From an uncultured Gemmatimonadales bacterium (lineage in GTDB: Bacteria > Gemmatimonadota > Gemmatimonadetes > Gemmatimonadales > Gemmatimonadaceae), in NCBI GenBank assembly GCA_963793305.1, contig CAWBZV010000003.1, positions 384,001 to 448,000 of the forward strand: a DNA stretch of 64,000 nucleotides, written 5' to 3'. Shown here one piece after another: positions 12,592 to 54,265 of this stretch. Numbering within the stretch: position 1 is the first letter of the stretch; the number at the start of each line of letters is the position of its first letter. Under the pieces are notes generated by a model. The model was given only the letters and a program-made list of their open reading frames with translations, had not been told where the DNA came from and did not search any database. Position numbers and translations under genes: made by a program.

Positions 12592-14316
12592 ATGCGGATC
12601 AGCCTCGCGGTACTCAGTGCGAGTGCGCTGCTCGCGGCGACGACGCTCTATGGTCAGGAGCAGGTAGAGACAGTCACGAAGAAGACCGCGGGTCCCACGT
12701 TCACCCCGGTCACCGATGCGATGCTGAAGAACGCACGCACCGACGGGAAGAACTGGCTCATGGTCGGTCGCGACTACACGAACCAACGGTGGTCGCCCCT
12801 CACGCAGATCACCACCGAGAACGTCCACAATCTCCGCGTCAGTTGGATGTACCAGACGGGGATCGGTCGACTCGGCTCATTCGAAACCAGTCCCGTCGTT
12901 GTCGATGGCGTCATGTACGTGACGACGCCGTACTCGACCGCGATGGCGGTCGACGCGCGGACCGGCAAAGAGATCTGGCGGTACGAGCCCAAGCTCGCGA
13001 CCACGATCTTCTGCTGCGGCCCCAACAATCGCGGCGTGGCCGTGTCCGGTCAGACCGTGTACTTCGGCACGTTAGATGCGCGCCTCATCGCCCTCGACGC
13101 GCAGACGGGCAAAGTGAAGTGGAATGTCGAAGTCGCGGATCCCGATGCCGGATACAGCGAGACGCACGCGCCACTCGTGATCGGCGACAAGGTCATCGTC
13201 GGCGTCTCGGGCGGCGAGTACGGCATTCGCGGGTTCGTCCGCGCCTACAATAAGGAGACGGGCGAGGTCGTGTGGACGACCTACACGACTTTCCAGGACA
13301 AGTGGTTCGGGAATTGGTCCGAGAAGACCTGGGAAGGCGACGTCTCGCTCCATCGAAATATCGCGGCCGAAAAGGCCGATTCAGCAAAATTCGCCAATGC
13401 GTGGCAACGCGGTGGCGCCGGCGTGTGGATGAATCCAGCGTACGACGCGGCAACAAATCAGATCTTCGTGGCCAGTGGCAATCCGTCCCCCGATCTCAAT
13501 GGTGGTGTGAGACCGGGGGACGATTTGTGTTCGGACTGCATCATCGCGATGGACGTCTCGGACGGGCACGTCACCTGGTATTACCAGGAAGTCCCGCACG
13601 ATGTCTGGGACCTGGACGCCGTCTCCCCACCGGTTGTCGTGAAACTCCGCGATGGCAAGACCGCGGTGGCACAAGCCGGGAAGACCGCATGGGTCTACAT
13701 CCTTGATGCGAAAACGGGCAAACTCATCCACAAATCGGCTCCGTTCGATCGCCTCGACAACATGTTCGCGCAGCCGACGCCGGAAGGCACGCGGATGCTC
13801 CCCGGCGCCAATGGCGGATCAGAGTGGTCGCCAATGTCGGTGAATCCCACGCTCGGATACTCGTACGTCATGGGTCTCGAGCAGCCCATGCACTACATCA
13901 CGCACTCGTCCCCGCTCACCAAAGGTCAGCTCTGGCTCGGGTCTGCCTTCAAGGCCGTGCCCGGCGAGGCGCAGTATGGGACCTTCACCGCGATCGATCT
14001 CAACACAGGCAAGATCGCGTGGCAGAACAAGACGGATCAGCCGATGATCGGTGGATCGTTGGCGACGGCTGGTGGCCTCGTATTTACTGGCGAGGGCAAC
14101 GGACACTTCAATGCCTTCGATGCGAAGACCGGTAAGCTGCTGTGGCACTTTGTGGCGGGCGCAGGATGCAACGCGCCGCCCGTGAGCTATGAGCTCGATG
14201 GCAAGCAATACGTCGCCGCGGCATGCGGCGGCAACTTCCAGCTCGGCTATCCGCTCGGCGATGCGGTGCTCGTGTTTGCGCTTCCCACGACATCGGCAGC
14301 ACCAGCGGCCAAGTGA
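12592..14316 (+). CDS. Periplasmic PQQ-dependent dehydrogenase with vicinal Cys-Cys and lanthanide-type DxD; substrate unknown
   Basis: Signal peptide, RWSPLTQI, FCCGPNNRG, SGGEYG, SGNPSP, HDVWDLDA, W-motif propeller repeats. Confidence 0.92.
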   Translation: MRISLAVLSASALLAATTLYGQEQVETVTKKTAGPTFTPVTDAMLKNARTDGKNWLMVGRDYTNQRWSPLTQITTENVHNLRVSWMYQTGIGRLGSFETSPVVVDGVMYVTTPYSTAMAVDARTGKEIWRYEPKLATTIFCCGPNNRGVAVSGQTVYFGTLDARLIALDAQTGKVKWNVEVADPDAGYSETHAPLVIGDKVIVGVSGGEYGIRGFVRAYNKETGEVVWTTYTTFQDKWFGNWSEKTWEGDVSLHRNIAAEKADSAKFANAWQRGGAGVWMNPAYDAATNQIFVASGNPSPDLNGGVRPGDDLCSDCIIAMDVSDGHVTWYYQEVPHDVWDLDAVSPPVVVKLRDGKTAVAQAGKTAWVYILDAKTGKLIHKSAPFDRLDNMFAQPTPEGTRMLPGANGGSEWSPMSVNPTLGYSYVMGLEQPMHYITHSSPLTKGQLWLGSAFKAVPGEAQYGTFTAIDLNTGKIAWQNKTDQPMIGGSLATAGGLVFTGEGNGHFNAFDAKTGKLLWHFVAGAGCNAPPVSYELDGKQYVAAACGGNFQLGYPLGDAVLVFALPTTSAAPAAK

Positions 14317-14326
14317 CGACTGGGTT

Positions 14327-14695
14327 ATGCGGTGGATCACGACGGTGGCGTTGGTGGCCGGTACGGTTGGACTCGGGGCTATGGGGGTCCTCGGGCAACC
14401 GACCGTGCCGGCGCCGACACACCTAGGCGGCGCATACTGGAAGCAGTTGAGCGCTGGTGAGAAGCAGGCATACCTGTCTGGATTTCTGGCTGGTGCGGCG
14501 GCGGAACAGGCGCGGGCTGCCGCGACGGCGATCGATACGATGCGTGCACAGGGTACGCTCCGCTATCGGTTTGCTCCACACGTCTACGCCGCGCAGATCG
14601 ATGATTTCTACTGGTGGCAGGACCGCGTCAGCGTGCCGATCGTCGACGCCATGGCGCAAATCAATGGCGCCATGGCCGATCAGCAACGGCGCTAA
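14327..14695 (+). CDS. Small exported hypothetical protein
   Basis: Signal-like N-terminus; W..LS..EK.AY..GF motif; between the dehydrogenase and the porin. Confidence 0.6.
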   Translation: MRWITTVALVAGTVGLGAMGVLGQPTVPAPTHLGGAYWKQLSAGEKQAYLSGFLAGAAAEQARAAATAIDTMRAQGTLRYRFAPHVYAAQIDDFYWWQDRVSVPIVDAMAQINGAMADQQRR

Positions 14696-14723
14696 CGGGT
14701 CACACTTCTCTGAAGGAGAGACA

Positions 14724-16028
14724 ATGAAACGATTCGCTGTGTTGGGTCTGACCGCGCTCCTCGTGCTCGCTGGTACCGCCCGCACCGCCCGCGCACAGCT
14801 GGTCATGCAGATGACGAACGGCTGGAACTTCACGTTCGCCGGGAACGTCAACGCGTTCTACGTCGAGCAGTGGGGCAATGCCAGAGCGGGCAATGCGTCG
14901 ATCAACGGCGGTCTCGTCTCGCAAGGTCAGGGCACCAACGCCAACATCCGCACGGGTCTCTTACCGGCAACAGTCGCGTTCGACGCGAAGGGCAAAGAAG
15001 GCGACGTGCTGATCGACGTGCACTTCGGGTTCTATCCCGAGATTCAGAACGGCGGATGCGGCGCGGGCTGCGTCGGCAACGCCCACGACCAGTTCGGCGC
15101 GCAGATCGACATGCGCCAGGTCTACCTGACATTCAGCAGCAGCTGGGGCCAGATCCTCGCCGGACGCGAGATCGATCTCTACCAGCGCCAGAACATCCTG
15201 ACCGACGCCACGCTGTTCGGCGTCGGCGCAACGGGTGGCAACCTCGCCGCCGGCGGCACGACGCTCGGCCGCATCGGCTTCGGGTACGTCTATCCGAACT
15301 TCAACGCGCAGATCACCTACAGCACGCCGGCCACGAGCCCGCTGCAATGGTCGATCGGCGTGTTCCAACCAGACAACATCGGCGGCGCGCAGACCGCGCC
15401 CGCGCGATCCTACGGCTACACGCCACTCCCGCGCATTGAGACCGAGGTCTCGTATACCGCCAAGCTCGGACAAAACTCGACGGACAAAGCCATGTTGTGG
15501 GCCAGCGGCACATGGCAGCAGGCGCAGGACGCGCCAACCGGGGTCGACACTGTCTCGTCCCCGGGTGATACAGGTGTCGGCGCGACGCACAAAGTGAACG
15601 CCGTCGGCGCCGCGGGTGGCATCAAGCTCGACATCTCGCGTCTGTCCCTCGTCGGCTCCGGCTACTACGGCAGAGGCATCGGCACGGTCCTCGGCTTTGG
15701 CGCCGACGCGCTCGATGGCAACCCCAGCGGTTCGCAGGTACGGCCGTCGTACGGCTATATCGGTCAGGTCTCGCTCAAGATCGATCCGAAGTGGACCGCA
15801 GTGGCGAGCTGGGGCGAGAGCATGGCGTCAGGAACGCACTTCGACGACGTCAGTGGCGCCAATCTGACGCTACTCAAGTACAACGCGCTTGGCGTTGGAT
15901 CGATCGTGTACCAGGCGACCAAGTCGCTCAAGTGGGTCGTCGAGTACGACTACACGGAAGCCGCGAACCAGAGCCACGAAAAGAACGTTGCCAACCAGGC
16001 GGCGACTGGCTTTATGGTGTTCTTCTGA
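14724..16028 (+). CDS. Outer-membrane porin
   Basis: AAGGAG RBS, signal peptide, amphipathic beta strands, C-terminal Phe (GFMVFF). Confidence 0.85.
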   Translation: MKRFAVLGLTALLVLAGTARTARAQLVMQMTNGWNFTFAGNVNAFYVEQWGNARAGNASINGGLVSQGQGTNANIRTGLLPATVAFDAKGKEGDVLIDVHFGFYPEIQNGGCGAGCVGNAHDQFGAQIDMRQVYLTFSSSWGQILAGREIDLYQRQNILTDATLFGVGATGGNLAAGGTTLGRIGFGYVYPNFNAQITYSTPATSPLQWSIGVFQPDNIGGAQTAPARSYGYTPLPRIETEVSYTAKLGQNSTDKAMLWASGTWQQAQDAPTGVDTVSSPGDTGVGATHKVNAVGAAGGIKLDISRLSLVGSGYYGRGIGTVLGFGADALDGNPSGSQVRPSYGYIGQVSLKIDPKWTAVASWGESMASGTHFDDVSGANLTLLKYNALGVGSIVYQATKSLKWVVEYDYTEAANQSHEKNVANQAATGFMVFF

Positions 16029-16155: not shown

Positions 16156-17965
16156 ATGAATCAACTCAACCGCCCGATTGCGATCGGTGCGTTGGTCGCC
16201 GGCTCACTGGCGCTGTGTACCGCTACGGCGGTCGCACAGGACCAGTTGGCGGACATGACGAAGGATGCAAACCAGTGGGTGATGACAGGTCGGACGTACG
16301 ACCTGCAGCGCTACAGCCCACTGACGCAGATCAACGCCACGAACGTGGCGCACCTCCACGCCGCGTGGAGCTTCTCGACCGGGACGCTGCGCGGACACGA
16401 GGGCAACCCCCTCGTCATCGGCAGCGTCATGTACCTGCACTCGTCGTTCCCGAACAAGGTCTACGCGCTGGATCTCTCCAAGCCCGGCGCGCCCCAAATC
16501 TGGCAGTACACGCCCGAACAGGACGCCAATGTCATCCCGATCGCCTGCTGCGACGTGGTGAACCGCGGGCTCGCCTATCACCCTTCGGGCAAGCTCTACA
16601 TCGAGCTCCTGCAGGGCGACTTACTCGCCCTCGACGCCAAGACCGGCAAGAAGATCTTCCAGGTCAAGTCGGCCGATTTCCACAAGGGCGAGACGATGAC
16701 CAACGCCCCGCTCGTGGTGAAGAACGTCGTCATCACGGGGATCTCGGGCGGCGAGTTCGGGGTTAGGGGCCGGGTCACGGCCTTCGACGCCATGGACGGC
16801 CACGAGGTGTGGCGCGCCTACTCGACGGGGCCGGATGCCGATGTGAAGATCACGGGCACGCCGAACGCGAACTATCCGTCGATGCAGGGGAAGGACCTGG
16901 GCGTCTCGACGTGGCAGGGCGATGAGTGGCAGCACGGGGGCGGGACGACCTGGGGCTGGTACTCGTATGACCCGAAGCTGAACCTCTTCTACTACGGCTC
17001 GGGCAACCCCGGGACGTGGAACCCCGACCAGCGGCCGGGCGACAACAAGTGGTCGATGACGATCTGGGCCCGCAACCCGGAGACGGGGGAAGTGAAGTGG
17101 GTCTACCAAATGACGCCGCACGACGCGTGGGACTATGACGGCGTCAACGAGATGGTGCTGATCGATACCAAAGACGGGAAGAAGATCCTGACCCACTTCG
17201 ACCGGAACGGGTTCGGCTACACGCTCGATCGGACGAACGGGAAGGTGTTGGTCGCCAACGCGTTCGGGCCGGTGAACTGGGCCAAGTCGATCGATCTGAC
17301 GACGGGTCGCCCGGTCGAGGATGCCAGCGAAGCGGACCACAGCCAAAGGCAACACCGAAGGGATCTGCCCGGCGGCGATCGGGTTCAAGGATCAGCAGCC
17401 GTCGGCGTATAGCCCAAAGACGGGCTGGAACTACGTGCCGACGAACAACATCTGCATGGACTACGAGGGCGTCGAGGTGAAGTACGCGGCGGGTCAGCCG
17501 TATGTCGGCGCGATCGTGCGGATGTTCCCGGGCCCCGGTGGCAATCGTGGGGCGTTCATCGCCTGGGATCCGATGCAGGGGAAGATCATGTGGTCGGATA
17601 AGGAGAACCTGGCCGCCTACGGTGGGGCGCTGGCGACGGCCGGTGATCTCGTCTTCTACGGGACGATGGAAGGGTGGCTCAAGGCCGTCGATCAGAAGAC
17701 GGGCAAGCTCCTGTGGGAGTTCAAGACACCGTCGGGGATTATCGGGAATCCGATGACGTATGTGGGGCCGGACGGCAAGCAGTACGTGGCCGTTCTGTCC
17801 GGCATCGGCGGCTGGGCCGGGATCGGCGTGGCGGCGGGCATTGGCGCCGAAGATCCGACGGCCGGCTTGGGCGCGTTGGGCGCCTTCGGTGACGCCGGAT
17901 CGTTCACGACGCAGGGTGGCGTGTTGACCGTCTTCTCGCTCGACTCGCCGGCAGCAGCGAAGTAA
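16156..17965 (+). CDS. xoxF: Lanthanide-dependent PQQ methanol dehydrogenase, XoxF-like (apparent extra G at 17323)
   Basis: [45 protein letters not shown]-terminal half [25 protein letters not shown]. Confidence 0.92.
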
Positions 17966-18051: not shown

Positions 18052-18924
18052 GTGCAGAGACTACTCATAATTGCGGCCTCGCTATCGCTCGCCGCATATA
18101 GCGCTACGACCGGCGTGTGGCGTAGCGCGCAGCTCGTTCCGTCCTCTCTTTCTAGGCTCGAGCGCGAAGCGCGAAGAGCCGAGCAGTTGGGTGTTCTGCG
18201 CGTATGTGCAGACCCGAACGACATGCCGGCGTCGAATGACAAACGTGAGGGTTTCGCGAACAAGATCGCCGAGCTGATGGCGAAAGACCTCGGCGATACG
18301 GTGACCTACGACTGGTGGCCGAGCCGTCGTGGCTATATCCGGAACACGCTGCGCGCCGGAAATTGCAATGTCGTGCTCGATGTCCCGGCGCAATACGAGC
18401 TCATTGCCGCATCAAAGCCCTATTATCGCTCGACGTACGTGATCGTCACCCGACGGGCCGAGCACTTGGCCCTGACGTCGCTGGATGACCCAAGACTCAA
18501 GACGCTGAAAATCGGCGTCAACTCGATCGGCGACAATTACACGCAGACGCCACCGGCGGACGCGATATCGAGTCGCGGGATCAATGCGAACCTGGTCTGG
18601 TTCACGACGTTCTACGACGACGAGCACCAGCCCGGCGACATCGTCAACGCAGTGGCCAAGGGCACCGTAGACGTTGCAGTCGTCTGGGGCCCGCTCGGCG
18701 GCTACTACGCGAAGCACGCGTCGGTGCCGCTCGAGGTGACGATGCTGCCGGACAGCGACGCCCTGACTGGCAAGCAATTCGCATTTGATCAGGCGTTCGG
18801 CGTGCGGCGCAGCGATCGCGAGCTCCTGGCGAAGTTGAACGACGTCATCGATCGTCGCCGCACCGATATCACGGCCATTCTCAATGAGTACGGCGTGCCA
18901 ATTGCCGGCAACGGAACCAGGTAG
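18052..18924 (+). CDS. xoxJ: XoxJ/MxaJ-like periplasmic binding protein
   Basis: LRVCADPNDMP.SN, GFANKIAEL, PYYRSTYV, AVVWGPLGGY; follows xoxF. Confidence 0.9.
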   Translation: MQRLLIIAASLSLAAYSATTGVWRSAQLVPSSLSRLEREARRAEQLGVLRVCADPNDMPASNDKREGFANKIAELMAKDLGDTVTYDWWPSRRGYIRNTLRAGNCNVVLDVPAQYELIAASKPYYRSTYVIVTRRAEHLALTSLDDPRLKTLKIGVNSIGDNYTQTPPADAISSRGINANLVWFTTFYDDEHQPGDIVNAVAKGTVDVAVVWGPLGGYYAKHASVPLEVTMLPDSDALTGKQFAFDQAFGVRRSDRELLAKLNDVIDRRRTDITAILNEYGVPIAGNGTR

Positions 18925-18945: not shown

Positions 18946-19413
18946 ATGAGCTATCGTTCGATTGCGTTACTGGTGTGTGCAGCAGGTGTGATGACGGCGT
19001 CAACTGCATGGGCTCAGACGGCCGTCAAAGACAGCCTCGGCGTCAACAACGTCGTGTACCAGGGCTGGAAGATGTTCGAGGTCTATTGCACCCGCTGCCA
19101 CGGCGAGGACGCGGTCGGCTCGAGCTTCGCGCCGGCACTCAAGCACTCGGTGGGACCCGACGGCAGCATCGACCACAAGGCCTTCTGGTTGACCGTCACG
19201 AACGGCCGACCCGGCAAGGGCATGCCGACCTGGGGCAATCTCCTGTCGCCGGAGCAGAAGGAAGATATCTGGAACTACCTCCGCGCCCGCTGCTGCGGAC
19301 ACCTGGCGCCGGGACGCCCGCACATCATCGCGGGCGCGAGCAAAGACTCGACGGCATTCCCGCCGGCCCAGGGGAACGACACGTTGTTCGTTCCTGCGTT
19401 CGTCAAAAGTTGA
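18946..19413 (+). CDS. Monoheme cytochrome c, probable electron acceptor of the PQQ enzyme(s) (XoxG/PedF counterpart)
   Basis: Signal peptide, CTRCH, distal GMP. Confidence 0.88.
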   Translation: MSYRSIALLVCAAGVMTASTAWAQTAVKDSLGVNNVVYQGWKMFEVYCTRCHGEDAVGSSFAPALKHSVGPDGSIDHKAFWLTVTNGRPGKGMPTWGNLLSPEQKEDIWNYLRARCCGHLAPGRPHIIAGASKDSTAFPPAQGNDTLFVPAFVKS

Positions 19414-19416: not shown

Positions 19417-20139
19417 ATGCGCCGCCTCGCGCTCGTGCTCGCCCTCGCCGCCAAAGCGGTCGCGGCGCAGCCGATGACGCGCGAGGCGGTCGCGCATGCC
19501 ATCGCTGGCGGTAGCGCGGATCATCCCGCGGATCTCTCCGGCCGTGATCTCAGCGGCCTCGATCTCACGGGTCTCAATTTCTCACGCGTGAAGCTCCAGA
19601 ACGCGACGCTGGTGGGCACGAGGTTCACGCGCGACACGATGTTCGCGGCCGATCTCTCCGGCGCGCACGCGCACGGCGCGAACTTCGATGGCGCCGTGCT
19701 CGACGTCGGTGTGTTTCGCGGCACGGATCTCACCCAAGCCTCGTTCCGCGGGGCGAGCGTCTACGCGGTCATCATGATCGGCGCCGATCTCTCGGGCGCC
19801 GACCTCACGGACGCGCGGCTCATCGGGACACTCGTCGACTCCAAGCTCGTTGGGACCAAGCTCGTCGACCTCAAGGGCGGCGCCGACATGCGCAATCAGC
19901 CCATGGGGCTCATGCGCACCGATCTCACCGGCGCGGATCTCTCCGGCGCCGATCTGACCGGCGCCAACCTGCAACACGCTCGACTCGTCCGCACAAACCT
20001 CACGAACGCCACGCTGACTCATGCCGACGTCACGAACGCCAATGTGAACAGCGCTATCTTCCATGGCGCTCGCGGGCGTGATAGCATCATCGGCTGGAAC
20101 AAAGCGCTGAACACCGACCAAGCCATACTGGATCACTAA
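19417..20139 (+). CDS. Exported pentapeptide repeat protein (PQQ-cluster type)
   Basis: ADLSG/ADLTG repeats, GADMRNQPMGLMR, signal peptide. Confidence 0.88.
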   Translation: MRRLALVLALAAKAVAAQPMTREAVAHAIAGGSADHPADLSGRDLSGLDLTGLNFSRVKLQNATLVGTRFTRDTMFAADLSGAHAHGANFDGAVLDVGVFRGTDLTQASFRGASVYAVIMIGADLSGADLTDARLIGTLVDSKLVGTKLVDLKGGADMRNQPMGLMRTDLTGADLSGADLTGANLQHARLVRTNLTNATLTHADVTNANVNSAIFHGARGRDSIIGWNKALNTDQAILDH

Positions 20140-23815: not shown

Positions 23816-23893
23816 GAAATACAAGCTAAGGGCGCGGGACTTGCGCCACAAAGTGCCGGTCAACTCATCCATTAAGAAACGGAGACCGAGATC

Positions 23894-29716: not shown

Positions 29717-29720
<4 letters not shown>
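27071..29720 (+). CDS. Hanks-type Ser/Thr kinase-TM-TolB-N-like/TPR protein (frameshift near 27924)
   Basis: ELGGGGMS, HRDIKPEN, DFG, GTPAYMAPE; TM; LAVLPFEN; TPR-like helices. Confidence 0.9.
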
Positions 29721-41509: not shown

Positions 41510-41525
41510 GTCGTATCTTTCAGGT

Positions 41526-45017: not shown

Positions 45018-45319
45018 GGAGTCTCCTCGCCCGTCAGCGCCTGGAATCCCCCGCTCGCGAATATCGGGATGTCATCGGCGACCGCCTTGAACCCAGGTGT
45101 CGACATCCCTTTCTTGAGCGCGTCCGTCGACGCGAACGTCAGCTCGGCCTTGCGATAAAAGGCGCTGTTCGGCGCGAACTTGACGAGCACGCCATTGGTA
45201 AACCCGATCTCTTTGGCATGCTTGGCGAGCAATGGCAGGTGCGTTGCCGCGTAGTACTTCTCGAACGCCGCGGGATCCTTGGGCGCATTGTATAGCACAA
45301 CGAGATGGGCCGCACTCAT
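45014..45319 (-). CDS. EthD-family protein
   Basis: VLY..P.DPAAF..YY...H.PL pattern. Confidence 0.8.
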   Translation of the reverse strand: MSAAHLVVLYNAPKDPAAFEKYYAATHLPLLAKHAKEIGFTNGVLVKFAPNSAFYRKAELTFASTDALKKGMSTPGFKAVADDIPIFASGGFQALTGEETP

Positions 45320-46284: not shown

Positions 46285-47049
46285 TCGAGAATCTCTCCTT
46301 TGCCAACGTCGGCTACATTGCCCGTCCAGCGCTTGTAGCGCCCGGTGGCGAACCGGCCGTCGATCGTGAATCCGCGCATGCGTTGGAGATAGCGCAGGAG
46401 TACCGGCACGTATGGCGGGCGGTAGGTGCACGCGTACCGATACGTCGCCGGGACCTCCAGGCCGCCGAGCGCGATCACGGACCCGCGCTTGGACCAGAGG
46501 CCGGCGCCGGTGCCGAGTCGGCCCGCGACCAGCATCGTCCCGGCGATCATCGCATGCGCGGCGTTCGCACCGGCATTTCCGCCGACGATCACGAGTCCCC
46601 GACGCACTCGCGTCGCGGCCCCGCTCCCGACGTTGCCGCGCACGATGATCTCCCCACCAGTCATCCCACGCGAGGCGCCGGGCAACGGCGCGCCGAGCCG
46701 ATCGCCCGCCGATCCACGGATCCGCAACAAACCCCCGGACATGGCCACGCCGGCGCCATCGCCGACGCTGCCGGTCACGTCGATCGTGCCGCCGCTCATC
46801 GCATGCCCGACACCTCGACCTGCCTCGCCTTCGATCGTCAGGGTGCCGGCACTCATGCCGGTCCCGAGTCCATCGACCCGCCGCAAATCCCCACCGACCC
46901 TGACGTTCCGGGCTCGGCTCGCCTTTGACATCGAATAGCTCGGCGAGCGGCACGCGGCGGCGACCAACCCAACACGTCCGGTCCGTGGCGATCGACGAGG
47001 CATCAATGCGCTCGGTGATCCCGGGGCGAAGCGTCAGCACGAGTGTCAT
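46272..47049 (-). CDS. fhcC: Formyltransferase/hydrolase complex subunit C (frameshift near 46910)
   Basis: LAELFDV.G, then Gly-rich M.GG beta-helix repeats, RRG, G.GEIL. Confidence 0.9.
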
Positions 47050-47951
47050 GCGACGATCTTCCGCAGGTAGAAATGATGGGGCCCGAGCTTCCCGCCATAA
47101 TTCCCGGCGGTGATTTTCTTGACGCCGGGGATGCACGCCGCCGGAATCCCCGCGCGCATCGCGCGGCTGATGCTGTCGAAGTCCAGTCCGTCGAGGACGA
47201 TCTCCATGACGCCGTTCACTCCTTCGGGCAGATCGGTCGTGGTGATCTCCCGCAGGGTCGGCGCGAACGCATCGTTCGTCGACGCGAGCAAGCTCTTGTA
47301 GCGCCTCGACCCGACTTTGCTGCCGCTGCGTACGATGCCGCCCGGGAACGGCAGGATGACGCCCGGCAGTCCCGTCATCGCGGCCACCGCTGCCTCAGCC
47401 GCCTGCAGCGCCTTCTCGGCCGTCTCGGCCAGCATGAGAAAATTGCCGCCGCCGACCGCGGAGACCTTGCCGAACGTCTCTTGTATCAGCGCTTCGCCTT
47501 CCATGACTGGCACGCGCCAGTAGCGGATCCCTCCGATCCGCTTGCTCGCTTGGAATCCGTCGCCGAAGATGCGGAGCGCCTTACCAACGGGCATCCGATC
47601 AGTTGAGCTCGGGATCCCATCGAAGACCGCCGTCGTCGGGCACGTGAGCACGGTCTGGCCCAGGCGTTCGATCAGCCGTTGCTGGAGGCCCGCCGAGTCG
47701 GGCGTGAACACCAGAACGCTGATGCCGGATCGGCCATCCGGTGTGTCGTCCGGCGACACCTCGTGTTCGATGCCCGCTTCGACCTTGCACCCGATGACCG
47801 ACGTCGCGAAGCCCGTCATCACGGTCGCCGCCACGCGCGCCCATCGCGGCGTCGCGGCCGTGATGATCACGCGCGCGCCGCGCATCGTGAACGCCTCGGC
47901 GAACGTGTCCTCGATCTCGACGCCGTTGATCGTGAGCGTGTCCGCGGTCAT
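47046..47951 (-). CDS. fhcD: Formylmethanofuran:H4MPT formyltransferase (Ftr)
   Basis: IEDTFAEAF, TGFATSVIGC..EAGIE, TPDGR.G, GGGN, PFPGGIVRSGSKVGS, AGNYGGKLG. Confidence 0.97.
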   Translation of the reverse strand: MTADTLTINGVEIEDTFAEAFTMRGARVIITAATPRWARVAATVMTGFATSVIGCKVEAGIEHEVSPDDTPDGRSGISVLVFTPDSAGLQQRLIERLGQTVLTCPTTAVFDGIPSSTDRMPVGKALRIFGDGFQASKRIGGIRYWRVPVMEGEALIQETFGKVSAVGGGNFLMLAETAEKALQAAEAAVAAMTGLPGVILPFPGGIVRSGSKVGSRRYKSLLASTNDAFAPTLREITTTDLPEGVNGVMEIVLDGLDFDSISRAMRAGIPAACIPGVKKITAGNYGGKLGPHHFYLRKIVA

Positions 47952-49552
47952 AGCTGCACCGCGTAGTTCTCGAAGGCGATGGTCACGTTCTCCTGGAAGT
48001 ACTTCTTGATATCGCTCTCAACCGCGCGATCATATCCAGGGGTCTGAAGCAATCTTCGCCCGGCAGGAGCGCGACGTAGTTGGCCTTCCTCGACGACCAG
48101 AATACCGGCCTTCACGACGTATCGTGGTGTCGCAAACATCTCGGCCGCGTTGGCCGACCGGGCATACACCGTGATGTCGGCATCAGCGCCCGGGCCGAGG
48201 TGCCCCTTGTTGCGCAATCCGAGCAATCGCGCCGGCCCTGCCCGCGTGATAATCGCGATTTCGCTCAGCGTATACTCGCGCGCGAGGCCATCGGCGAGCG
48301 CGCTGCCTGCGAGATGCTTCTGGTTGATGCGCTTGAGCCGATCATCGCGATACGTCCGATCCATGAGCAACCGGATGAGCTCCGGATAGCTCATGAACGA
48401 CCCGCCGTTGGGATGGTCGGTAGAAAGAACCAAGCGCCACGGATCGGGCGACAACAGAAAGAGCTCTAGACCGACGACCCATTGCAGCGCGGCCACGGCT
48501 GCGGTGTCCCGGTATGTATAGGGGACGATCCCGCAGCCCGTCTCGAGCTCGATGTCGACATTCATCCACTTCCGCCCCGTCGACATATGCAGCAGGTACT
48601 CGACCGCGCCGTCCGCGGTCAGTGTGCACGCGGGTCCGAACATGACCTGCCCGACGTCCCCACTGACCTCGGGATGCGCCGCGAAGTACTCGGCGATCCG
48701 CTTCGCCGCCGACGCCCAGGGTTTCGCATAGCTCTGAAACTGCAGATGCGTGAAATGCGCCCGCCGGCCGCCAACGGCTCGCATGCTCTCGAGCGTGATC
48801 TCGACGTTGCCGGGCAACCCGAGATTGTTGCAGTGAATGTGCACGGGGTGCGGAAGCCCGAGCGCGTTCCCGGCGTCGGTCAACGTCTCCAGGATGGCGC
48901 GGGGAGTCACGTTCGCCGCGCCGACGGGGTCGTCGAGCGACTTGACCTCGCGCACATTTCGCTTCCACAACTCGACGCCGCCGGGATTGACGATCTTGAT
49001 CGAATACGCCTTCGTCGCGCCGAGGAGCCAGCCGACATAGTCACGCGCCCGGTCGCGTTCGCCCGCGGCAATCTGGCGCAGCAGGTATTCGTCGTTGCCG
49101 AGCAACGCGAAGAATCCGCCGTCGACGATCGGCGTGTCGTCGAACTGCGCATGCGTCGACCGGGCGGAGATCGGCGCGACCGCGGCGTCGAACACGGTGG
49201 TGTAACCGAGTCCCGCGTAGCGATATCCTGTGGTGAACGTGCTCGGCACGGTGCCGCCGGAGCCCGAGCGCGGAATGATGTCACCGCGCTCCAACGCTGG
49301 CGCTGATACGGGATCGGCCGCGTGCTCCTCGGGCAGCAGCATGCGCGCGAGGTTGACGCTCGCCGCCGCGACGTGCGCGTGGATGTCGATGCCACCGGGC
49401 ATGACCACCATGCTGCGTGCGTCGATCTTTGGCGCATCCGCGGGCACATCCGCCACGATCTGTCCGTCGCGCACGCAGATATCGCGCACGTCGCCGTCGA
49501 CGCCGTTCGCGGGGTCGTAGACGGTGCCCCCGGCGATCCGCAGGCTCGTCAC
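47948..49552 (-). CDS. fhcA: Formyltransferase/hydrolase complex subunit A (amidohydrolase)
   Basis: VYDPANG, GGIDIHAH, YA.LGYTT, KIVNPGG, HIHCNNLG, TDHPNGG. Confidence 0.96.
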   Translation of the reverse strand: MTSLRIAGGTVYDPANGVDGDVRDICVRDGQIVADVPADAPKIDARSMVVMPGGIDIHAHVAAASVNLARMLLPEEHAADPVSAPALERGDIIPRSGSGGTVPSTFTTGYRYAGLGYTTVFDAAVAPISARSTHAQFDDTPIVDGGFFALLGNDEYLLRQIAAGERDRARDYVGWLLGATKAYSIKIVNPGGVELWKRNVREVKSLDDPVGAANVTPRAILETLTDAGNALGLPHPVHIHCNNLGLPGNVEITLESMRAVGGRRAHFTHLQFQSYAKPWASAAKRIAEYFAAHPEVSGDVGQVMFGPACTLTADGAVEYLLHMSTGRKWMNVDIELETGCGIVPYTYRDTAAVAALQWVVGLELFLLSPDPWRLVLSTDHPNGGSFMSYPELIRLLMDRTYRDDRLKRINQKHLAGSALADGLAREYTLSEIAIITRAGPARLLGLRNKGHLGPGADADITVYARSANAAEMFATPRYVVKAGILVVEEGQLRRAPAGRRLLQTPGYDRAVESDIKKYFQENVTIAFENYAVQL

Positions 49553-50622
49553 GGTTGCCTCACCAGCGCGGTCAACTCACGCACCGTGGCCGCCGTTTCG
49601 GGAACCACGCCGACCAGCGCTGGTCGCAATGGCAGCGGGATCTCATCGGCGCGCAGCGCCGTGCCGCCGTCATGGATGCCCGCGATACCAGTATCGATGG
49701 TGACCGCCGCGGCGAGGAGATTCTCACTTGCGCGGGGGCCAACAATGACAGTCGGTATGTTGGTGAGTCGTAGCGACGGGGGCACACTGGCACTGGATCC
49801 CACGATCAGCGCCGCGTCGAACTCAGGAGGGTCATAGGGGCAGTAGCGCGGCGCCCCCCTCGCGAAATCGATTGCCTTGGGATACCCGGTTTGCCACGTG
49901 AGCACCGAGTCGGCGCCCACGCGATTGCCGCCGCCGCGCAGGATCATTAACGCCGCGCGCGTCGGCCCATTGAGCGCTTCGGTCAGCGCCAGCAGTGGCT
50001 CGATGTACTCAGGCCGTTGCTCGCCATCGACGACGATGGCCACGTACTTCCCCTTGACCAGCCGCTCGGCCAGCGGGGTCATACCGTGCCCGAGAATCGC
50101 GGCCCGTGTCAGTGTGGCGGCCTCGACGCTCAAGTCGACGGAGATGAACTGCACGCCCGCGCGATCGGGGAGATAGCGCGAGCGCAATCGCGGGTACGCA
50201 TGATCGGGATCGATGCCCCAGAACACGACGATGTCGGCCCGGTACCGGAGCTCGCCGAATGTCGCGCTGCAACGGCCGCGCTCCTGGATGGCGAGGATGA
50301 GCTCTCGTGGCGTCACGGTATCCAGCATTGCGCCGAGTACGTCGGCTAGCGCGCATGCCTCGCGCTGCGCGGAGGTCGAGAGCTCGGCCGCCAGGTACAC
50401 CAGCGGTCGCTTGGCCGTCGTCAGCACTCGCGCCGCCTCGGCCAGCGCGGTGGGGACGGTGACTCCGGCATCGCCGACGCGCGCCAGCGTCGGCACCGTG
50501 CCATCGCCGAACCAGCGAATGCCGAGGTCACAGGCGTTCACGGCCTCGAAGATGCGGCCGTCGCGGACCGTGACGGCGATGTCATCGCAGGCCAACCCGC
50601 AGCCGAGGCACGTGGTCGTCAC
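49549..50622 (-). CDS. fhcB: Formyltransferase/hydrolase complex subunit B (FwdB-like)
   Basis: CLGCGLACDD, RAD..VFWG, LRG..N..GA...L.WQTGYP, G...R.D..PL.L. Confidence 0.92.
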   Translation of the reverse strand: MTTTCLGCGLACDDIAVTVRDGRIFEAVNACDLGIRWFGDGTVPTLARVGDAGVTVPTALAEAARVLTTAKRPLVYLAAELSTSAQREACALADVLGAMLDTVTPRELILAIQERGRCSATFGELRYRADIVVFWGIDPDHAYPRLRSRYLPDRAGVQFISVDLSVEAATLTRAAILGHGMTPLAERLVKGKYVAIVVDGEQRPEYIEPLLALTEALNGPTRAALMILRGGGNRVGADSVLTWQTGYPKAIDFARGAPRYCPYDPPEFDAALIVGSSASVPPSLRLTNIPTVIVGPRASENLLAAAVTIDTGIAGIHDGGTALRADEIPLPLRPALVGVVPETAATVRELTALVRQP

Positions 50623-51641
50623 GCGGCCCGCACCCTGAGCGCAGCCTCGCACGCAGTCACGGTTCTCGCCTCGGCGAACACCGTGCAGATCGGGCGGCCG
50701 GCCGCTATACGCGATCCGGGCATTGGGATATCGCGCACCGAGCTGTCCGCGAGCCACGACGTTGTGTCACCGACGACCGTATCATTGCGCGCATACACGA
50801 TCGCTTTGCCGACCGTGGTCCGTCGCGGTTCCGGCGCGAAGCTCGGCAGCTTTCCGGCGCACGCCTCGGCGTGCACGCGCGCGATCGAAATTCCGTACAA
50901 TCGCTCGGCCAGCTCCATCGCCGCGGTGAAGCGCGGGTTGACCTCGATCGGGACCGGCCGGCCGCGGCTCAGCACGAAATCGACACCGTTGACGCCGACG
51001 AGTCCGAACTCGCGCGTGACCGTCTCGGCGATCGTGACAGCCTCGTCGATCGGCGGCACGAGGATATTGCCGACGTACCGGAAATCGCTTGCGACGAGTT
51101 GGCGCGTGAATGCCAGCGGGCACACGGAGCGTCCATCGGCCGCAAAGACTATGGACCCCGGTACGCCCGGCACTCGCTCCTGCAGCACGCTGGTCCGAGG
51201 GATGCGCATTCCCCGTCGCCATTCCGTGATGGCATGACCTCCGCCGGATCGGCGAGGCTTCATCAACCAACGCCCGCTGCTTGGCGCCGATGCACGCACC
51301 GCCGGTGCAGTTGATAGCGCGCGCGCGAGCACGAACGGATTGCGCACGCGCTCCACCACCTCTGGCGAATTGCCCCAGAGTGTGCGCCCCTGGGCCAACT
51401 CGGCGATGGCCCCGGGGTGATTCTCGAAGTTCGACGTATATGCGCACGCAGCCGCGGGGATACCGCGAGCGCGCAGCGCCGCGGCTTCGGCCGAATACGG
51501 CCCGCTGAGCGCATTAAAAGCCGAGACGGCGCGAAGGTCGAGGTCCCCGAATGCGTCGATGGCGGCAACGGAGAACCCGGCCGCCCTCGCAGACTCGGCG
51601 AATGCGCGCACGCTGACACCGGCAAGAAGAAGCGTCGTCAT
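50619..51641 (-). CDS. ATP-grasp protein of H4MPT clusters (OrfY-like)
   Basis: G.S.RA.A.SA, D.FGD.D, KP...GGG, G..GVDF, EVNPR, G.PICTV. Confidence 0.85.
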   Translation of the reverse strand: MTTLLLAGVSVRAFAESARAAGFSVAAIDAFGDLDLRAVSAFNALSGPYSAEAAALRARGIPAAACAYTSNFENHPGAIAELAQGRTLWGNSPEVVERVRNPFVLARALSTAPAVRASAPSSGRWLMKPRRSGGGHAITEWRRGMRIPRTSVLQERVPGVPGSIVFAADGRSVCPLAFTRQLVASDFRYVGNILVPPIDEAVTIAETVTREFGLVGVNGVDFVLSRGRPVPIEVNPRFTAAMELAERLYGISIARVHAEACAGKLPSFAPEPRRTTVGKAIVYARNDTVVGDTTSWLADSSVRDIPMPGSRIAAGRPICTVFAEARTVTACEAALRVRAA

Positions 51642-51649
51642 GCGACGAG

Positions 51650-51704
51650 CGCCGCTCCGCGGCGCGTCGATGCGGCAAAAAACGCCGCTCGACTGGTCGG
51701 TTGG
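51650..51704 (-). repeat. 55-bp double-hairpin dispersed repeat, copy 1; flanked by a 16-bp direct repeat (51635-51650, 51712-51727)
   Basis: CCAACCGACCAGTCGAGC-GGCGTTTTTTGCC-GCATCGACGCGCCGCGGAGCGGCG on the minus strand. Confidence 0.85.
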
Positions 51705-51714
51705 AATGGGCTCG

Positions 51715-52728
51715 TCATGCGACGAGCCCTAGGCGTCGCCGCGCGGCGTCGCGCGGAATAACGGTGAGATAGTCGAGGGCGGAGCCGCGCGCGTCGCGCA
51801 GGCCGAGCGTGTCGACCATGGCGCGAGCGCTGCCGCCAGCGAGGCCGTTGGCGATGAGCGCCGCGCCTTGCGCCGCATGCTTCGCGACGGACGCAAAGCC
51901 GTCGAGCACGCGCACGGGCCGGCTGAGCCGTGCGGCGAACGCATCCACGTACTCGTGCGCGAACCGGCCTGACAGCACGATCTCAGCCGGACCCGGCACC
52001 GACACCATCAGTGCGGCTATCGCTTTGAGTCCGCTCTCGACGTACGCCACGTCATCGTCGGTCCCGCCGTGAAACAACATGGCTTTGGTGACGTGCTCCG
52101 CGAGATACGCGACCTCGCCGTCCCATGCCCCGGCCGCGCGACGGCCGATGGGACCCGACGACCCGCCAACACCGTCGACGATGCGTCCACGATCGACGGC
52201 GATCGCCGCGGTAAAGGCCCCGCCGAGCTCCAACAGGATCAATGACACGTCGCCAGGTGCGCAGCGTCGGCGGCGTCGTTGTTCGTCAACGGCGAGGGCG
52301 ACCGCACAGACTTTGTCGGCGGTTCCCATATCGACGCGGTTGTGCTTTCGATAGGCTGGGACCGAGGGCAGATGCACGACGCCCGGTGTGAAAACGACCG
52401 GGAGTCGCGATGAGGCGAGCGCGCGGATGAGAGACGAGAGGCCGCCGAGGCCGCCAGTGTCACCCGACTCGGTGAGCACGGCCAGGCGCACATCGTCCTC
52501 GGTAAGCTCGAGGCCCGGTACGAGCGGGAGACCGTAGCCTGATGGTCCGACGATGAGATCGACGGGCGCGACCTCGTAGAGCATGGTAAGAAACGCGGCT
52601 GGGTCGGCGAGCGCGGTGGCGGTCTCGACCGCGCGGTCGAGGAAGACGGTGTCGCCGGCCAGGCCGCACACGTCGATGCTGACCGTCCCCGGGTCGATCC
52701 CAATGACCCGGGGCGCGTCGCTATCCAA
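51715..52728 (-). CDS. DUF1464 family (ASKHA / butyrate-kinase-like) protein
   Basis: VIGIDPGT.S.D, PSGYGLP, PGV.HL..VP..RK.N..DMGTADK, G.IVDG.GG, DGEVAY, K.AAQGAA. Confidence 0.85.
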   Translation of the reverse strand: MDSDAPRVIGIDPGTVSIDVCGLAGDTVFLDRAVETATALADPAAFLTMLYEVAPVDLIVGPSGYGLPLVPGLELTEDDVRLAVLTESGDTGGLGGLSSLIRALASSRLPVVFTPGVVHLPSVPAYRKHNRVDMGTADKVCAVALAVDEQRRRRRCAPGDVSLILLELGGAFTAAIAVDRGRIVDGVGGSSGPIGRRAAGAWDGEVAYLAEHVTKAMLFHGGTDDDVAYVESGLKAIAALMVSVPGPAEIVLSGRFAHEYVDAFAARLSRPVRVLDGFASVAKHAAQGAALIANGLAGGSARAMVDTLGLRDARGSALDYLTVIPRDAARRRLGLVA

Positions 52729-53578
52729 TCGACTGTGCGAGGTCATAGATCGCCTCGGCGTCGAGAACGGCATCACTCGTCTCGAACAACCGCGCGATAC
52801 AGCGCTTGTGGATCTTGGTCTTGAGGCCGCCGACGCCGATCGCGCCGAACACGGTCACGCCGTCGCGAACCTTGCCATCGTCGTTCGTCTCGACGCCTTC
52901 GATGCCTAAGGGCGGCACGGCGTTCAAGTCGACGGCGACCTGGAGTCCGCGGTTGGCCCACGCCGCGCGCGGCACCATCTGGACGCCGGCCGGCCCGCAG
53001 TTGAGCAGGATCTGCGCGCCCTCCAGTATGGCCGCGGCCTGACTCGGCTCTGACATCTGCGTGCACGAGACTTTGCCACCGAAGCGCGCGATGATGTTGC
53101 GCGTCGCTCGCTCGCCATCGGGTCCGCGCCGCGATGTGATGAGCACGTCGGCGCCGGCTTTGGCGAGGAGGCCGGCCGAGCGGGTGCCGACGGGGCCGGT
53201 GCCGGCGGTGACGACGGCGCGCTTGCCGCGAACGTCGCCGACGGATTTCACGATCTTGCAGACGGCCGCCACCGCGGTCGTGTTCGAACCGTTCGAGTCG
53301 AGCATCAGCGACACACGGAACGGGCCGAACAGGGTTTCTTGCGCGGCGACGAGAATGGCCTCGCCGACGTTGATATCGGCGCCGCCGACGAATACGGCCG
53401 AGTTCACGAGGTCTTTGGGGCCTCGTGTGAAGATCAGGCCATAGATCAGATCACGCGCATCGGGTGGCGTGATGCTGCCATAGCTCATGATCTCGTCCGC
53501 GCCGCCGTCGTAGGCTACGACACGGTCGAAGACGCTCGGCAGGCGGTTGCTGTCGAGCTGCAAAAGCAGTTTTCGCAT
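52721..53578 (-). CDS. mtd: NAD(P)-dependent methylene-H4MPT dehydrogenase (MtdA/MtdC-like rather than MtdB)
   Basis: LLQLD....PSVFD.VVAYDGGAD, IFTRGPK, D.NGSNTTA.AA, GTGPVG, DLNAVPPLG. Confidence 0.93.
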   Translation of the reverse strand: MRKLLLQLDSNRLPSVFDRVVAYDGGADEIMSYGSITPPDARDLIYGLIFTRGPKDLVNSAVFVGGADINVGEAILVAAQETLFGPFRVSLMLDSNGSNTTAVAAVCKIVKSVGDVRGKRAVVTAGTGPVGTRSAGLLAKAGADVLITSRRGPDGERATRNIIARFGGKVSCTQMSEPSQAAAILEGAQILLNCGPAGVQMVPRAAWANRGLQVAVDLNAVPPLGIEGVETNDDGKVRDGVTVFGAIGVGGLKTKIHKRCIARLFETSDAVLDAEAIYDLAQSIG

Positions 53579-53638
53579 CGAAATAGCTCACTCGATCGGG
53601 TACCGGCAGGATGGAGTTCGGCTCAGCCGAAACTCCTT

Positions 53639-53694
53639 CCAACCGACCAGTCGAGCAGCGCGATAGCGCTGCATCGACGCGCCGCGGAGCGGCG
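53639..53694 (+). repeat. Double-hairpin dispersed repeat, copy 2 (fae-mtd intergenic)
   Basis: CCAACCGACCAGTCGAGC-AGCGCGATAGCGCT-GCATCGACGCGCCGCGGAGCGGCG. Confidence 0.85.
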
Positions 53695-53743
53695 CTACCT
53701 GCTGGGAGCCGCGAGGACGCGGGCTCCCAGCTGCCGGGCGAGC

Positions 53744-54265
53744 TTACTTCGCTGCCGAGTCTGCTCCGCCTGCGAACGGGTGCTTCGCGGTCCGCGCACC
53801 GCTGATGACGGCGTCGACCGACGGTTGATGCTTGAGCGCGCGTTCGATCGACTCCTTCGTCGCGCGGTAGTTGTAATCGAAGATCTTCTTGTCATCGGCG
53901 GCATCCCAGTGGATGAACACACCGACAGTTATGCAGTAGTCGTCCACCTTGTTCCGTGGGATGACGCCGCTCGAGACGGAGTCGACGACGGCGCGGGCCA
54001 CGGCGGCCTGCGCGGGGCCGAACATTTGCACCGCCTGCTTCGCACCCTTGATCGTGACCTTGTTGTAGAGGATCGTGTCCGGCTTCGCGGGCAAGTTCGG
54101 CGTGACGACGGCGAGCAGTGTCGTGAAGCCATCCTTGTTGTTCGTCAGTGCTTCGGCGAACGCGTGTCCCACGGGCCCTTCCTTGGAACCGATCATCAGG
54201 TCGATATGGGCTACTTCGTTGCCGTCGCCTACCAGCGACTCACCGAGAAAGAAATCCGCAGCCAT
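53744..54265 (-). CDS. fae: Formaldehyde-activating enzyme
   Basis: GESLVGDGNEVAHIDL, KP.T...NKVTIK, QMFGPAQAAVA, VFIHW, YNY.ATK. Confidence 0.97.
   Translation of the reverse strand: MAADFFLGESLVGDGNEVAHIDLMIGSKEGPVGHAFAEALTNNKDGFTTLLAVVTPNLPAKPDTILYNKVTIKGAKQAVQMFGPAQAAVARAVVDSVSSGVIPRNKVDDYCITVGVFIHWDAADDKKIFDYNYRATKESIERALKHQPSVDAVISGARTAKHPFAGGADSAAK

Follow-up and report, generated by a model that had tools for sequence, protein, structure and literature searches.

Can a member of the soil Gemmatimonadota, which are abundant and almost uncultured, oxidize methanol to formate with one-carbon (C1) carriers of its own making? The question is raised by a 64,000-nucleotide stretch of DNA (the window) from an uncultured Gemmatimonadales bacterium (contig CAWBZV010000003.1, positions 384,001 to 448,000). 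Positions 12592-54265 of the window hold an island of about 42 kb with genes for methanol oxidation, for formaldehyde oxidation linked to tetrahydromethanopterin (H4MPT) and for cofactor biosynthesis. The reading that we consider probable is that of an intact, vertically inherited island, predicted to oxidize methanol, and likely other small alcohols too, to formate with its own C1-carrier synthesis. The host would be a facultative serine-cycle methylotroph that makes its own pyrroloquinoline quinone (PQQ).

Genes of a predicted methanol-to-formate route near the replication origin

Families were called by Pfam and NCBIfam profile scans against curated cut-offs. The scans recover the pathway and most of the cofactor families that the initial annotation had placed in the island (Table 1), whereas its Orf5, Orf7, Orf17, Orf20 and OrfY names occur in none of the profile libraries used. 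The boundaries coincide with the outermost start codons: the gene of the first PQQ dehydrogenase opens with an ATG at 12592, and fae, on the minus strand, starts at 54265. The island begins about 8 kb from the replication-origin genes. It holds a XoxF-type and a PedH-like PQQ alcohol dehydrogenase, xoxJ, a cytochrome c gene, fae, mtdB, mch and fhcBADC, along with about 20 genes for H4MPT and methylofuran biosynthesis. These family matches, and the presence of all seven proteins of H4MPT-linked formaldehyde oxidation (Fae, MtdA/B, Mch and FhcABCD), support the earlier claim that the methanol-to-formate route is nearly complete and comes with the genes to make its cofactors. The clustering is not due to chance, because the gene order recurs in eight of eight relatives' loci and in all five named Gemmatimonadales loci examined.

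Only the second of the two dehydrogenases in the island is XoxF proper. It matches TIGR03075 (cut-off 480) in two pieces, at model positions 3-372 (501 bits) and 372-530 (199 bits), and its best solved matches are 6dam, 4mae and 6oc5 (E ~1e-142 over the N-terminal 390 aa). A lanthanide-type motif consists of vicinal cysteines plus a catalytic aspartate, followed two residues on by a lanthanide-coordinating aspartate. The Cys-Cys and WDYDG of XoxF align to the same residues in the solved XoxFs 4mae and 6dam, and dehydrogenase 1 carries Cys-Cys and a WDLDA (Asp-x-Asp) motif. The closest solved relatives of dehydrogenase 1 are the quinoprotein ethanol dehydrogenases 6zcv/6zcw (E 3e-97, 329 bits). 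The latter is PedH of Pseudomonas putida KT2440 (E 6e-97), with Asp-x-Asp kept. The alignment to PedH covers residues 59-547 but reaches only 329 bits, and the TIGR03075 score of 483 is barely at the cut-off of 480; therefore, dehydrogenase 1 is a distant branch from PedH. The N-termini of both dehydrogenases, of XoxJ, of the cytochrome and of the pentapeptide protein resemble signal peptides. One CxxCH and a Cys-Cys occur in the cytochrome, which scores 49 bits on TIGR03874, below the equivalog cut-off of 162.

MptG catalyzes the first committed step of H4MPT synthesis. The beta-RFAP synthase (MptG) of the island passes TIGR00144 and scores 198 bits against a cut-off of 328 on NF040726, and PabB, PabA and PabC for p-aminobenzoate supply are present beside it. 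Proteins for later H4MPT steps (dihydropteroate-synthase-like, MptN, HisA/F-related, CitG-like and DUF447) are also present, below equivalog cut-offs or without a curated function. The naming of Mfn proteins in the initial annotation stands in part: the MfnB-like protein belongs to its family (PF04476, 150 bits against 22), and equivalog cut-offs are not reached for MfnB, MfnD, MfnE or MfnF. The MfnF-like protein scores 211 on TIGR03123 (cut-off 244), on its N-terminal piece alone, and 152 on NF040623 (cut-off 520), and the MfnD-like ATP-grasp_3 protein scores 27 on NF040722 (cut-off 400). Methylofuran synthesis and the XoxG role of the cytochrome are therefore assigned by context.

The enzymatic steps, metal use and growth on methanol are all predicted by analogy with the roles of these families in Methylorubrum extorquens and methanogens. 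XoxF with PQQ and a lanthanide would oxidize methanol in the periplasm and pass electrons to the neighboring secreted cytochrome c, with XoxJ assisting. The PedH-like enzyme and the porin likely broaden or feed the alcohol supply. In the cytoplasm Fae would join formaldehyde to H4MPT, MtdB would carry the product to methenyl-H4MPT and Mch would yield formyl-H4MPT. FhcABCD would move the formyl group to methylofuran and release formate. A formate dehydrogenase, probably of the selenocysteine type and NAD-linked, may oxidize this formate further, or a formate-tetrahydrofolate (THF) ligase may feed it into a serine cycle with isocitrate lyase.

Genes elsewhere in the genome and the role of the island

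The initial annotation had suggested that the island may serve energy or detoxification only. This is not supported, since pqqBCDE, a formate dehydrogenase, formate-THF ligase, a serine-cycle cluster, isocitrate lyase and phosphoenolpyruvate (PEP) carboxylase lie elsewhere in the same genome (G000; 5.72 Mb in 26 contigs, 92% complete and 5% contaminated). The genes pqqB (267 bits, cut-off 245), pqqC (291, 240), pqqD (75.8, 46) and pqqE (524, 381) form one operon at C3:1447.5-1450.6 kb; pqqA was not identified in the genome.

The formate dehydrogenase alpha subunit (G000:C3:1272137-1274011) scores 665.9 bits (cut-off 666.25) in a continuous match of 622 positions. Its gene contains one in-frame TGA in the context SCNRT-TGA-HAPSVAGL and adjoins NuoEF-like and NuoG-N-like genes. 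The genes for tRNA-SeC (C11:60848-60941) and selD stand directly after the formate-THF ligase gene (G000:C11:57638-60941). The enzyme thus probably uses selenocysteine, and the selenium genes stand together with genes of C1 metabolism.

Formate-THF ligase scores 837 bits. In the serine-cycle cluster the beta subunit of malate-CoA ligase, MtkA, scores 679 bits on NF010647 (cut-off 604). Its neighbors are an MtkB/sucD-like protein (431 bits), a CitE/malyl-CoA-lyase-like protein, an Sga/BhcA-like aminotransferase and a glyoxylate/hydroxypyruvate-reductase-like protein (324 bits, cut-off 455). A serine cycle is thus probably present. Crotonyl-CoA carboxylase/reductase reaches at most 82 bits in the genome, below its cut-off of 379, while isocitrate lyase is present, which suggests that glyoxylate is regenerated by isocitrate lyase rather than by the ethylmalonyl-CoA pathway. 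A profile search of the genome, which is 92% complete, found nothing for RuBisCO, and hexulose-phosphate synthase reached 22 bits at best, not above its cut-off. PQQ synthesis, a formate dehydrogenase of probable selenocysteine type and a probable serine cycle that includes isocitrate lyase are placed in one genome, which can guide the choice of cultivation conditions: methanol plus La/Ce, and selenium.

Several points weigh against growth on methanol by this organism. Equivalog cut-offs are not reached by FhcB, by the cytochrome c or by any of the Mfn-like and MptN-like proteins. The Sga-like aminotransferase scores 591 on BhcA (cut-off 650) and the lyase is placed at the level of the CitE family only; therefore, the serine cycle is probable and not proven. 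Three further PQQ dehydrogenases of this family lie outside the window, two of which carry Cys-Cys and Asp-x-Asp. The genome has at least four Asp-x-Asp PQQ dehydrogenases, one of them PedH-like, so substrates other than methanol are possible. No cultured member of the phylum that grows on methanol came up in literature searches, although isolates were not their target, and methanol oxidation here is a prediction from genes.

These points leave some room for an island that serves formaldehyde and alcohol detoxification and energy only. Other alcohols or aldehydes would then be the main substrates of the PQQ enzymes, and formaldehyde from demethylation would be cleared by the H4MPT route, with no growth on methanol. 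Metagenome-assembled genomes with fae alone have been noted as possible detoxifiers (PMC10994693), and several serine-cycle assignments here are at family level only. However, the island has a true XoxF with XoxJ and a cytochrome, malate thiokinase is above its equivalog cut-off and clustered with lyase, aminotransferase and reductase genes, and the ligase, isocitrate lyase and PEP carboxylase are present. Two families of the order retain the roughly 20 cofactor genes, and the Gemmatimonadetes enzyme is abundant in soil proteomes, according to the text of PMC5103831. A role in detoxification alone is therefore unlikely, and methanol oxidation coupled to assimilation is preferred.

Host, inheritance and reading frames

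The host belongs to Gemmatimonadota, family Gemmatimonadaceae. Among the best 120 relatives of its DnaA, all six with an organism name are 'Gemmatimonadaceae bacterium' (68-86% identity), and among the best 120 relatives of Mch all seven with a name are Gemmatimonadales or Gemmatimonadota. The window is part of a 1.57-Mb contig. It is collinear with the one-contig genome G003 of the same genus over 61 kb aligned, from dnaN (including dnaA and mnmE) to beyond the M16 peptidases, the sole exception being an inversion of 21.4-41.0 kb. The G+C content is even (0.62-0.70), with no compositional step at the region edges. Identity to G003 is 80% for Mch, 94% for Fae, 80% for DnaA and 86% for DnaN; island and housekeeping genes diverge alike. 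The named relatives, the collinearity, the even G+C and the equal divergence therefore show that the contig is not chimeric and that the host is not a proteobacterial methylotroph, two of the doubts that the initial annotation had raised.

Mch (PF02289) is present in five of five genomes of the same genus, nine of 24 of the same family, and three of eight and none of eight from two sister families. Across the phylum, 85 of 401 sampled genomes have an Mch that passes the Pfam cut-off: 13 of 94 from the family of the window, 70 of 166 from a second family, two of seven from a third and none of 133 from the nine remaining ones. All eight relatives' loci keep the core order fae-mtdB-DUF1464-ATPgrasp-fhcBADC-mch-(EthD)-MptN-(CitG)-PTPS and also the order HisAF-MfnF/E-MfnB-SDR-PCD-DHPS-pabBA-DUF447-RFAPsynthase. 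XoxF-xoxJ-cytochrome-pentapeptide-propeller lies on the same contig in five of the eight, and the remaining three contigs end first.

In a library-wide search, Mch had 1564 relatives at E <= 0.001. Two clusters (formed at 50% identity) share 66-67% of residues with the window Mch, and the next one shares 55%. A quick maximum-likelihood tree of 87 rows, as proposed in the initial annotation, was built with the best 80 of at least 597 loci from a narrower Mch alignment; more distant clades, including the classical proteobacterial methylotrophs, lie outside its range, and same-genus records may be left out. The window falls with Gemmatimonadota-labeled rows, in a 38-row clade (SH-aLRT 99) of 24 Gemmatimonadota, nine unlabeled and five Acidobacteriota rows. 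The neighboring rows are Acidobacteria, Rokuibacteriota, Actinomycetota and Chloroflexota, with Planctomycetota across the root. One Pseudomonadota-labeled row occurs among the best 80 loci, inside the Planctomycetota clade. The island is vertically kept within the lineage.

An island foreign to its host, whether through a chimeric contig or through recent acquisition from a proteobacterial methylotroph, is very improbable. Its patchy distribution, with no Mch in nine of the 12 families sampled, would fit such an origin, as would the five Acidobacteriota loci in the Gemmatimonadota Mch clade, which imply that exchange between phyla occurs. However, the collinearity with G003 includes dnaA, dnaN and mnmE, the G+C content is even and the Mch identity to G003 matches that of DnaA and DnaN. 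The nearest Mch outside the clade is at most 55% identical, and the sister rows among the best 80 loci are labeled Acidobacteria and Rokuibacteriota.

The five Acidobacteriota loci (L058, L061, L062, L063 and L068) are labeled Vicinamibacterales, and their Mch are 62-64% identical to the window Mch; other Acidobacteriota Mch rows are just 46-53% identical. In the tree they group together (SH-aLRT 99) inside the Gemmatimonadota clade. The loci keep parts of mch-MptN-(CitG)-PTPS-HisAF-MfnF-MfnB-SDR-PCD-DHPS-pabB, most fully in L058, and one of them is on a 1.65-Mb contig. They are candidates for a cross-phylum exchange. In an approximately unbiased (AU) test, a tree holding the 33 Gemmatimonadota-side rows together, a group picked after seeing the tree, was not rejected (p-AU 0.298); the nesting and the direction of transfer are therefore not established. 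It is conceivable, though we regard it as doubtful, that the island can move as a unit and has been exchanged between Gemmatimonadales and Vicinamibacterales. In this genus it would then have gained an uptake and control layer, made up of another lanthanide-type dehydrogenase that has its own porin and of a pair of Hanks-type kinases among the methylofuran genes.

As assembled, the window breaks frame in xoxF, the propeller gene, mfnF, the first kinase gene, pabB and fhcC. Public contigs were compared with window positions 17001-57000; X1 and X2 are runs of one study, possibly the source sample, and X3 is from a different study. The X1 and X2 contigs are at least 99% identical to the region over long pieces and lack one base at 20389, 23490, 26155, 27923, 36460 and 46906. 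X3 lacks the base at 26155 and 27923. Near 17329, in xoxF, one X1 contig and two RNA-library contigs lack one base. Removal of a single base gives open reading frames (ORFs) of 602 aa for XoxF (17329), 320 aa for the propeller (20389), 338 aa for the MfnF-like protein (26155), 917 aa for the kinase (27923), 455 aa for PabB (36460) and 258-287 aa for fhcC (46906). Full-length ORFs are thus regained at six of the seven places. The essential yidC (5117-6956) and the Nramp gene (63070-64000) are each split between two frames in the same way, and pqqB and pqqC elsewhere in the genome show the same type of break. G003 is broken at other sites, in xoxF near the window equivalent of 17110 and in the SDR gene. 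Since contigs lack the extra bases, the ORFs are restored, unrelated genes are broken alike and G003 is broken elsewhere, the frame breaks are assembly errors and not decay, in xoxF probably so. Real pseudogenizing mutations in a decaying cluster, which the initial annotation had raised for xoxF, fhcC and pabB and which the broken frames taken alone would suggest, are scarcely credible, as the contigs lack the extra base at every break compared, one set of them from another study.

Two observations count against this account in part. The contigs that lack the base at 17329 differ from the window at many nearby positions, so they may come from a paralogue or a relative. Removal of the base at 23490 shortens the SoxYZ-like ORF from 270 to 161 aa. 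The RNA-library contigs (X15 and X17) on xoxF, the cytochrome gene and fae are only 90-97% alike; therefore, they are no proof of transcription here, and hint that genes of relatives occur in RNA libraries.

The extra bases lie outside homopolymers, and six of the seven contexts have GAA or TTC (CGAACGT, ACGTTCG, ACGTTCC, CATTCT twice and GCGAAGC). The pattern suggests that base calling erred systematically, perhaps where a motif is modified. The X1 contigs, at 99% identity or more, skip 120 bases at 43691-43812 inside the CitG-like gene, and X1 and X2 contigs skip 77 bases at 51634-51712, in the spacer that separates the ATP-grasp gene from the DUF1464 gene. Both differences are length variants at the level of strains.

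Known systems, neighboring genes and minor features

The island is real and intact, and it is a kind of cluster already published in the same phylum. The completeness that the initial annotation took as new was described in 2016, when Gemmatimonadetes genomes were reported with a clustered gene set of XoxF, an entire H4MPT pathway, PQQ synthesis and a THF/serine route (Butterfield et al. 2016, PeerJ 4:e2687, PMC5103831). According to its text, H4MPT biosynthesis genes are directly upstream of the dehydrogenase on one Gemmatimonadetes contig, and the dehydrogenase is among the most abundant soil proteins by proteomics. In row 17 of its protein table, where spectral counts are high, a Gemmatimonadetes scaffold reads trpG - hypothetical - beta-RFAP synthase - MDH, an order that corresponds to pabA - DUF447 - RFAP synthase - XoxF as in the relatives G033 and G031. 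The phylum, a XoxF with lanthanide Asp residues, and fae/mtdB/fhc/mch are shared with the window, and EthD is next to mch in both. The comparison, made by text and protein table rather than gene by gene, also gives differences. In this genome a single 1.57-Mb contig carries all 42 kb beside dnaA, an inversion and inserts (two kinases, DUF2252 and the PLP enzyme) separate RFAP synthase from XoxF in this genus, a PedH-like enzyme plus a porin precede XoxF, and methylofuran-type genes can now be named.

XoxF has also been described as abundant in Gemmatimonadetes (Diamond et al. 2019, PMC6784897). Multi-copy XoxF3 systems in Acidobacteria and Gemmatimonadetes, with XoxG/J, YncE propellers and NRAMP, are reported by Voutsinos et al. 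(2024, BMC Biol 22:41, PMC10875860). They share with this genome several XoxF copies, XoxJ, small hypothetical proteins and a beta-propeller of the YncE type, and the candidate XoxG here would match theirs; NRAMP is near XoxF3 there, and an Nramp gene closes the window here. That paper uses none of the words tetrahydromethanopterin, H4MPT or serine cycle. Within the literature library that was searched, no paper links 'Gemmatimonad' with 'methylofuran'. The window thus gives a contiguous, origin-proximal copy of the island in which apparent pseudogenes are assembly errors, and no new principle. What it adds, at the level of annotation, is the naming of the methylofuran-type genes, the location near the origin, the inserts specific to the lineage and the probable selenocysteine-type formate dehydrogenase.

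Methylorubrum extorquens AM1 has XoxF1/XoxG/XoxJ and 'archaeal-like' H4MPT/Fhc clusters, the same families with the same predicted methanol-to-formate chemistry, and it assimilates carbon by the serine cycle with malate thiokinase, a probable further likeness to this genome. Its solved XoxF1 (6oc5) is among the best matches of XoxF. It belongs to a different phylum, and here the dehydrogenase, pathway and cofactor genes form one island. Isocitrate lyase is present here while crotonyl-CoA carboxylase/reductase is below the cut-off, and the cytochrome is no recognizable XoxG equivalog.

Table 1. Features of the window, with profile scores in bits and curated cut-offs in parentheses (aa, amino acids; scans, Pfam/NCBIfam scans; G003, G022 and L050 are relatives)
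Feature	Position	Strand	Evidence or remark
dnaN, dnaA, rnpA, yidC (broken frame), mnmE	1642-8982		replication-origin neighborhood by scans; same flank in G003
PQQ alcohol dehydrogenase no. 1, PedH-like	12592-14316	+	TIGR03075; signal peptide
Small secreted protein, ~122 aa, no family	14327-14695	+	homologous ORF in G003
Porin-like outer-membrane protein, 434 aa	14724-16028	+	signal peptide, C-terminal Phe; present in G003, G022
XoxF-type lanthanide/PQQ methanol dehydrogenase	16156-17965	+	TIGR03075, two pieces
XoxJ/MoxJ-like periplasmic binding protein	18052-18924	+	TIGR03871 277 (212)
Secreted mono-heme cytochrome c, candidate electron acceptor (XoxG role)	18946-19413	+	PF13442
Secreted pentapeptide-repeat protein	19417-20139	+	PF00805
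PQQ-catabolism-associated beta-propeller	20139-21102	+	TIGR03866 62 + 164, two pieces
Metallo-beta-lactamase (MBL)-fold hydrolase-rhodanese fusion	21384-23195	-	TIGR04559/TIGR04557 below cut-off; Rhodanese Pfam domain
SoxYZ-like carrier	23060-23872	-	SoxZ/SoxY Pfam domains
Conserved protein without family, 219 aa	24203-24862	-	homologues in G003, G022, L050
HisA/HisF-related protein of H4MPT-type clusters	24875-25564	-	TIGR00734 85; PF00977
MfnF-like / TIGR03123 'H4MPT-linked C1 transfer pathway protein'	25518-~26534	+	profile match
MfnE-like amino-acid-kinase-fold protein	~26541-27074	+	NF040622 58 (300)
Two tandem Hanks-type Ser/Thr kinases with tetratricopeptide-repeat (TPR) tails	26966-32359	+	PF00069 161, 166
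MfnB-like 4-HFC-P synthase (furan moiety of methylofuran)	32316-32930	-	PF04476; NF002575 111 (304)
Short-chain dehydrogenase/reductase (SDR) oxidoreductase	32949-33704	+	scans
Pterin-4a-carbinolamine dehydratase (PCD)	33701-34063	+	scans
Dihydropteroate-synthase-like protein (DHPS) with DUF6513	33766-35448, likely start near 34060	+	TIGR00284 203 (257)
PabB	35438-36805	+	PabB domain
PabA	36803-37459	+	PabA domain
PabC-type aminotransferase IV	37456-38304	+	PabC domain
DUF447 protein and beta-RFAP synthase (MptG)	38301-39811	+	PF04289/PF20766; TIGR00144 176 (113.5)
DUF2252	within 39808-42434, from 39808	+	scans; among relatives found only in G003
orf198, no family	41003-41599	-	ORF
Pyridoxal-phosphate (PLP)-dependent Ser/Thr-dehydratase-like	41538-42434	+	PALP 80% (G003), 67% (G002) identity; 30% match in G022
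PTPS	42608-43135	-	scans
CitG-like triphosphoribosyl transferase	43132-~44160	-	scans
Short MptN-like ATP-grasp glutamate ligase	44160-44867	-	252 (350)
EthD	45014-45319	-	scans
Mch, methenyl-H4MPT cyclohydrolase, 322 aa, GTG start	45316-46284	-	TIGR03120 384 (229)
fhcC	46272-~47049	-	FhcC 147 (131)
fhcD	47046-47951	-	FhcD 427 (293)
fhcA	47948-49552	-	FhcA 654 (393)
fhcB	49549-50757	-	214 (328), FhcB-like only; in conserved fhcB position
ATP-grasp_3 protein (weakly MfnD-like) and DUF1464 protein	50619-52776	-	PF02655 80; PF07318 252
MtdB-like methylene-H4MPT dehydrogenase	52721-53578	-	MtdA/B N-domain PF09176 99.6 (27)
Fae	53744-54265	-	TIGR03126 245 (118)
Nramp (broken frame)	63070-64000		

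Several genes of the island, the PedH-like dehydrogenase among them, have no mention in the initial annotation. The porin-like gene and the small secreted-protein gene sit between the two dehydrogenase genes, and the pentapeptide, beta-propeller, SoxYZ-like and MBL-rhodanese genes are also within the island. The nearest Atlas clusters of the porin-like protein have Porin_4 in 17-47% of members (score 0.97-0.99). Pfam and NCBIfam scans gave no family for the porin-like, small secreted, 219-aa and 198-aa proteins. The MBL-rhodanese and SoxYZ-like pair resembles the 'quinoprotein relay' helper set, with scores of 162 on TIGR04559 (cut-off 280) and 86 on TIGR04557 (cut-off 140). The porin, pentapeptide, propeller, SoxYZ-like and hydrolase-rhodanese proteins are putative helpers of the dehydrogenases. 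Among the relatives' loci examined, only those of G003 and G022 share the PedH-like enzyme and the porin with the window.

Two Ser/Thr kinase genes, DUF2252, the PLP dehydratase and EthD are inside the region, and about 9 kb of the 42 kb (kinases, DUF2252, orf198 and PLP enzyme) are without an evident C1 role. The kinase pair is a lineage-specific insert: it is found only in the window, G003 and L050, and not at this place in G022, G008, G033 or G031. DUF2252, orf198 and the PLP enzyme are genus-level additions with no shown C1 link.

Two more XoxF-like genes with Cys-Cys and WDYD motifs lie at G000:C5:400989-407408 and G000:C14:31062-32648. The C5 copy is followed by a cytochrome c gene and then by a gene for a 926-aa Ser/Thr kinase, and the C14 copy is near a transketolase gene. 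A link between kinases and PQQ dehydrogenases was rejected. A kinase gene is within 10 kb at two of six PQQ-dehydrogenase loci, and about 42 Pkinase genes in 5.7 Mb give a chance expectation of about 0.14 per locus; P(>=2 of 6) is about 0.19, so there is no enrichment.

Methanotrophy was likewise dismissed. A PmoC-PmoA-like candidate ORF and its partner (L120:4253-6834; G000:C3, 71 kb upstream) have no Pfam match at E <= 1 and no sequence match to solved structures below E 0.13, so that any resemblance would be one of fold. Pfam AmoC matched nothing in the genome, but its control matched nowhere either.

Locus L110, labeled Candidatus Rokuibacteriota, holds XoxF-xoxJ-fae-fhcBAD-DUF447-RFAP synthase-fhcC-mch in 11 kb; the Rokubacteria genomes of 2016 were reported, in the text of PMC5103831, without any formaldehyde pathway. 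The MptN-like ligase of the island has 235 aa and covers model positions 57-290 of 291, so that the N-terminal ~55 residues of the archaeal enzyme are absent. It has no indel relative to the public contigs from 44296 onward, and its homologue in G003 is short too.

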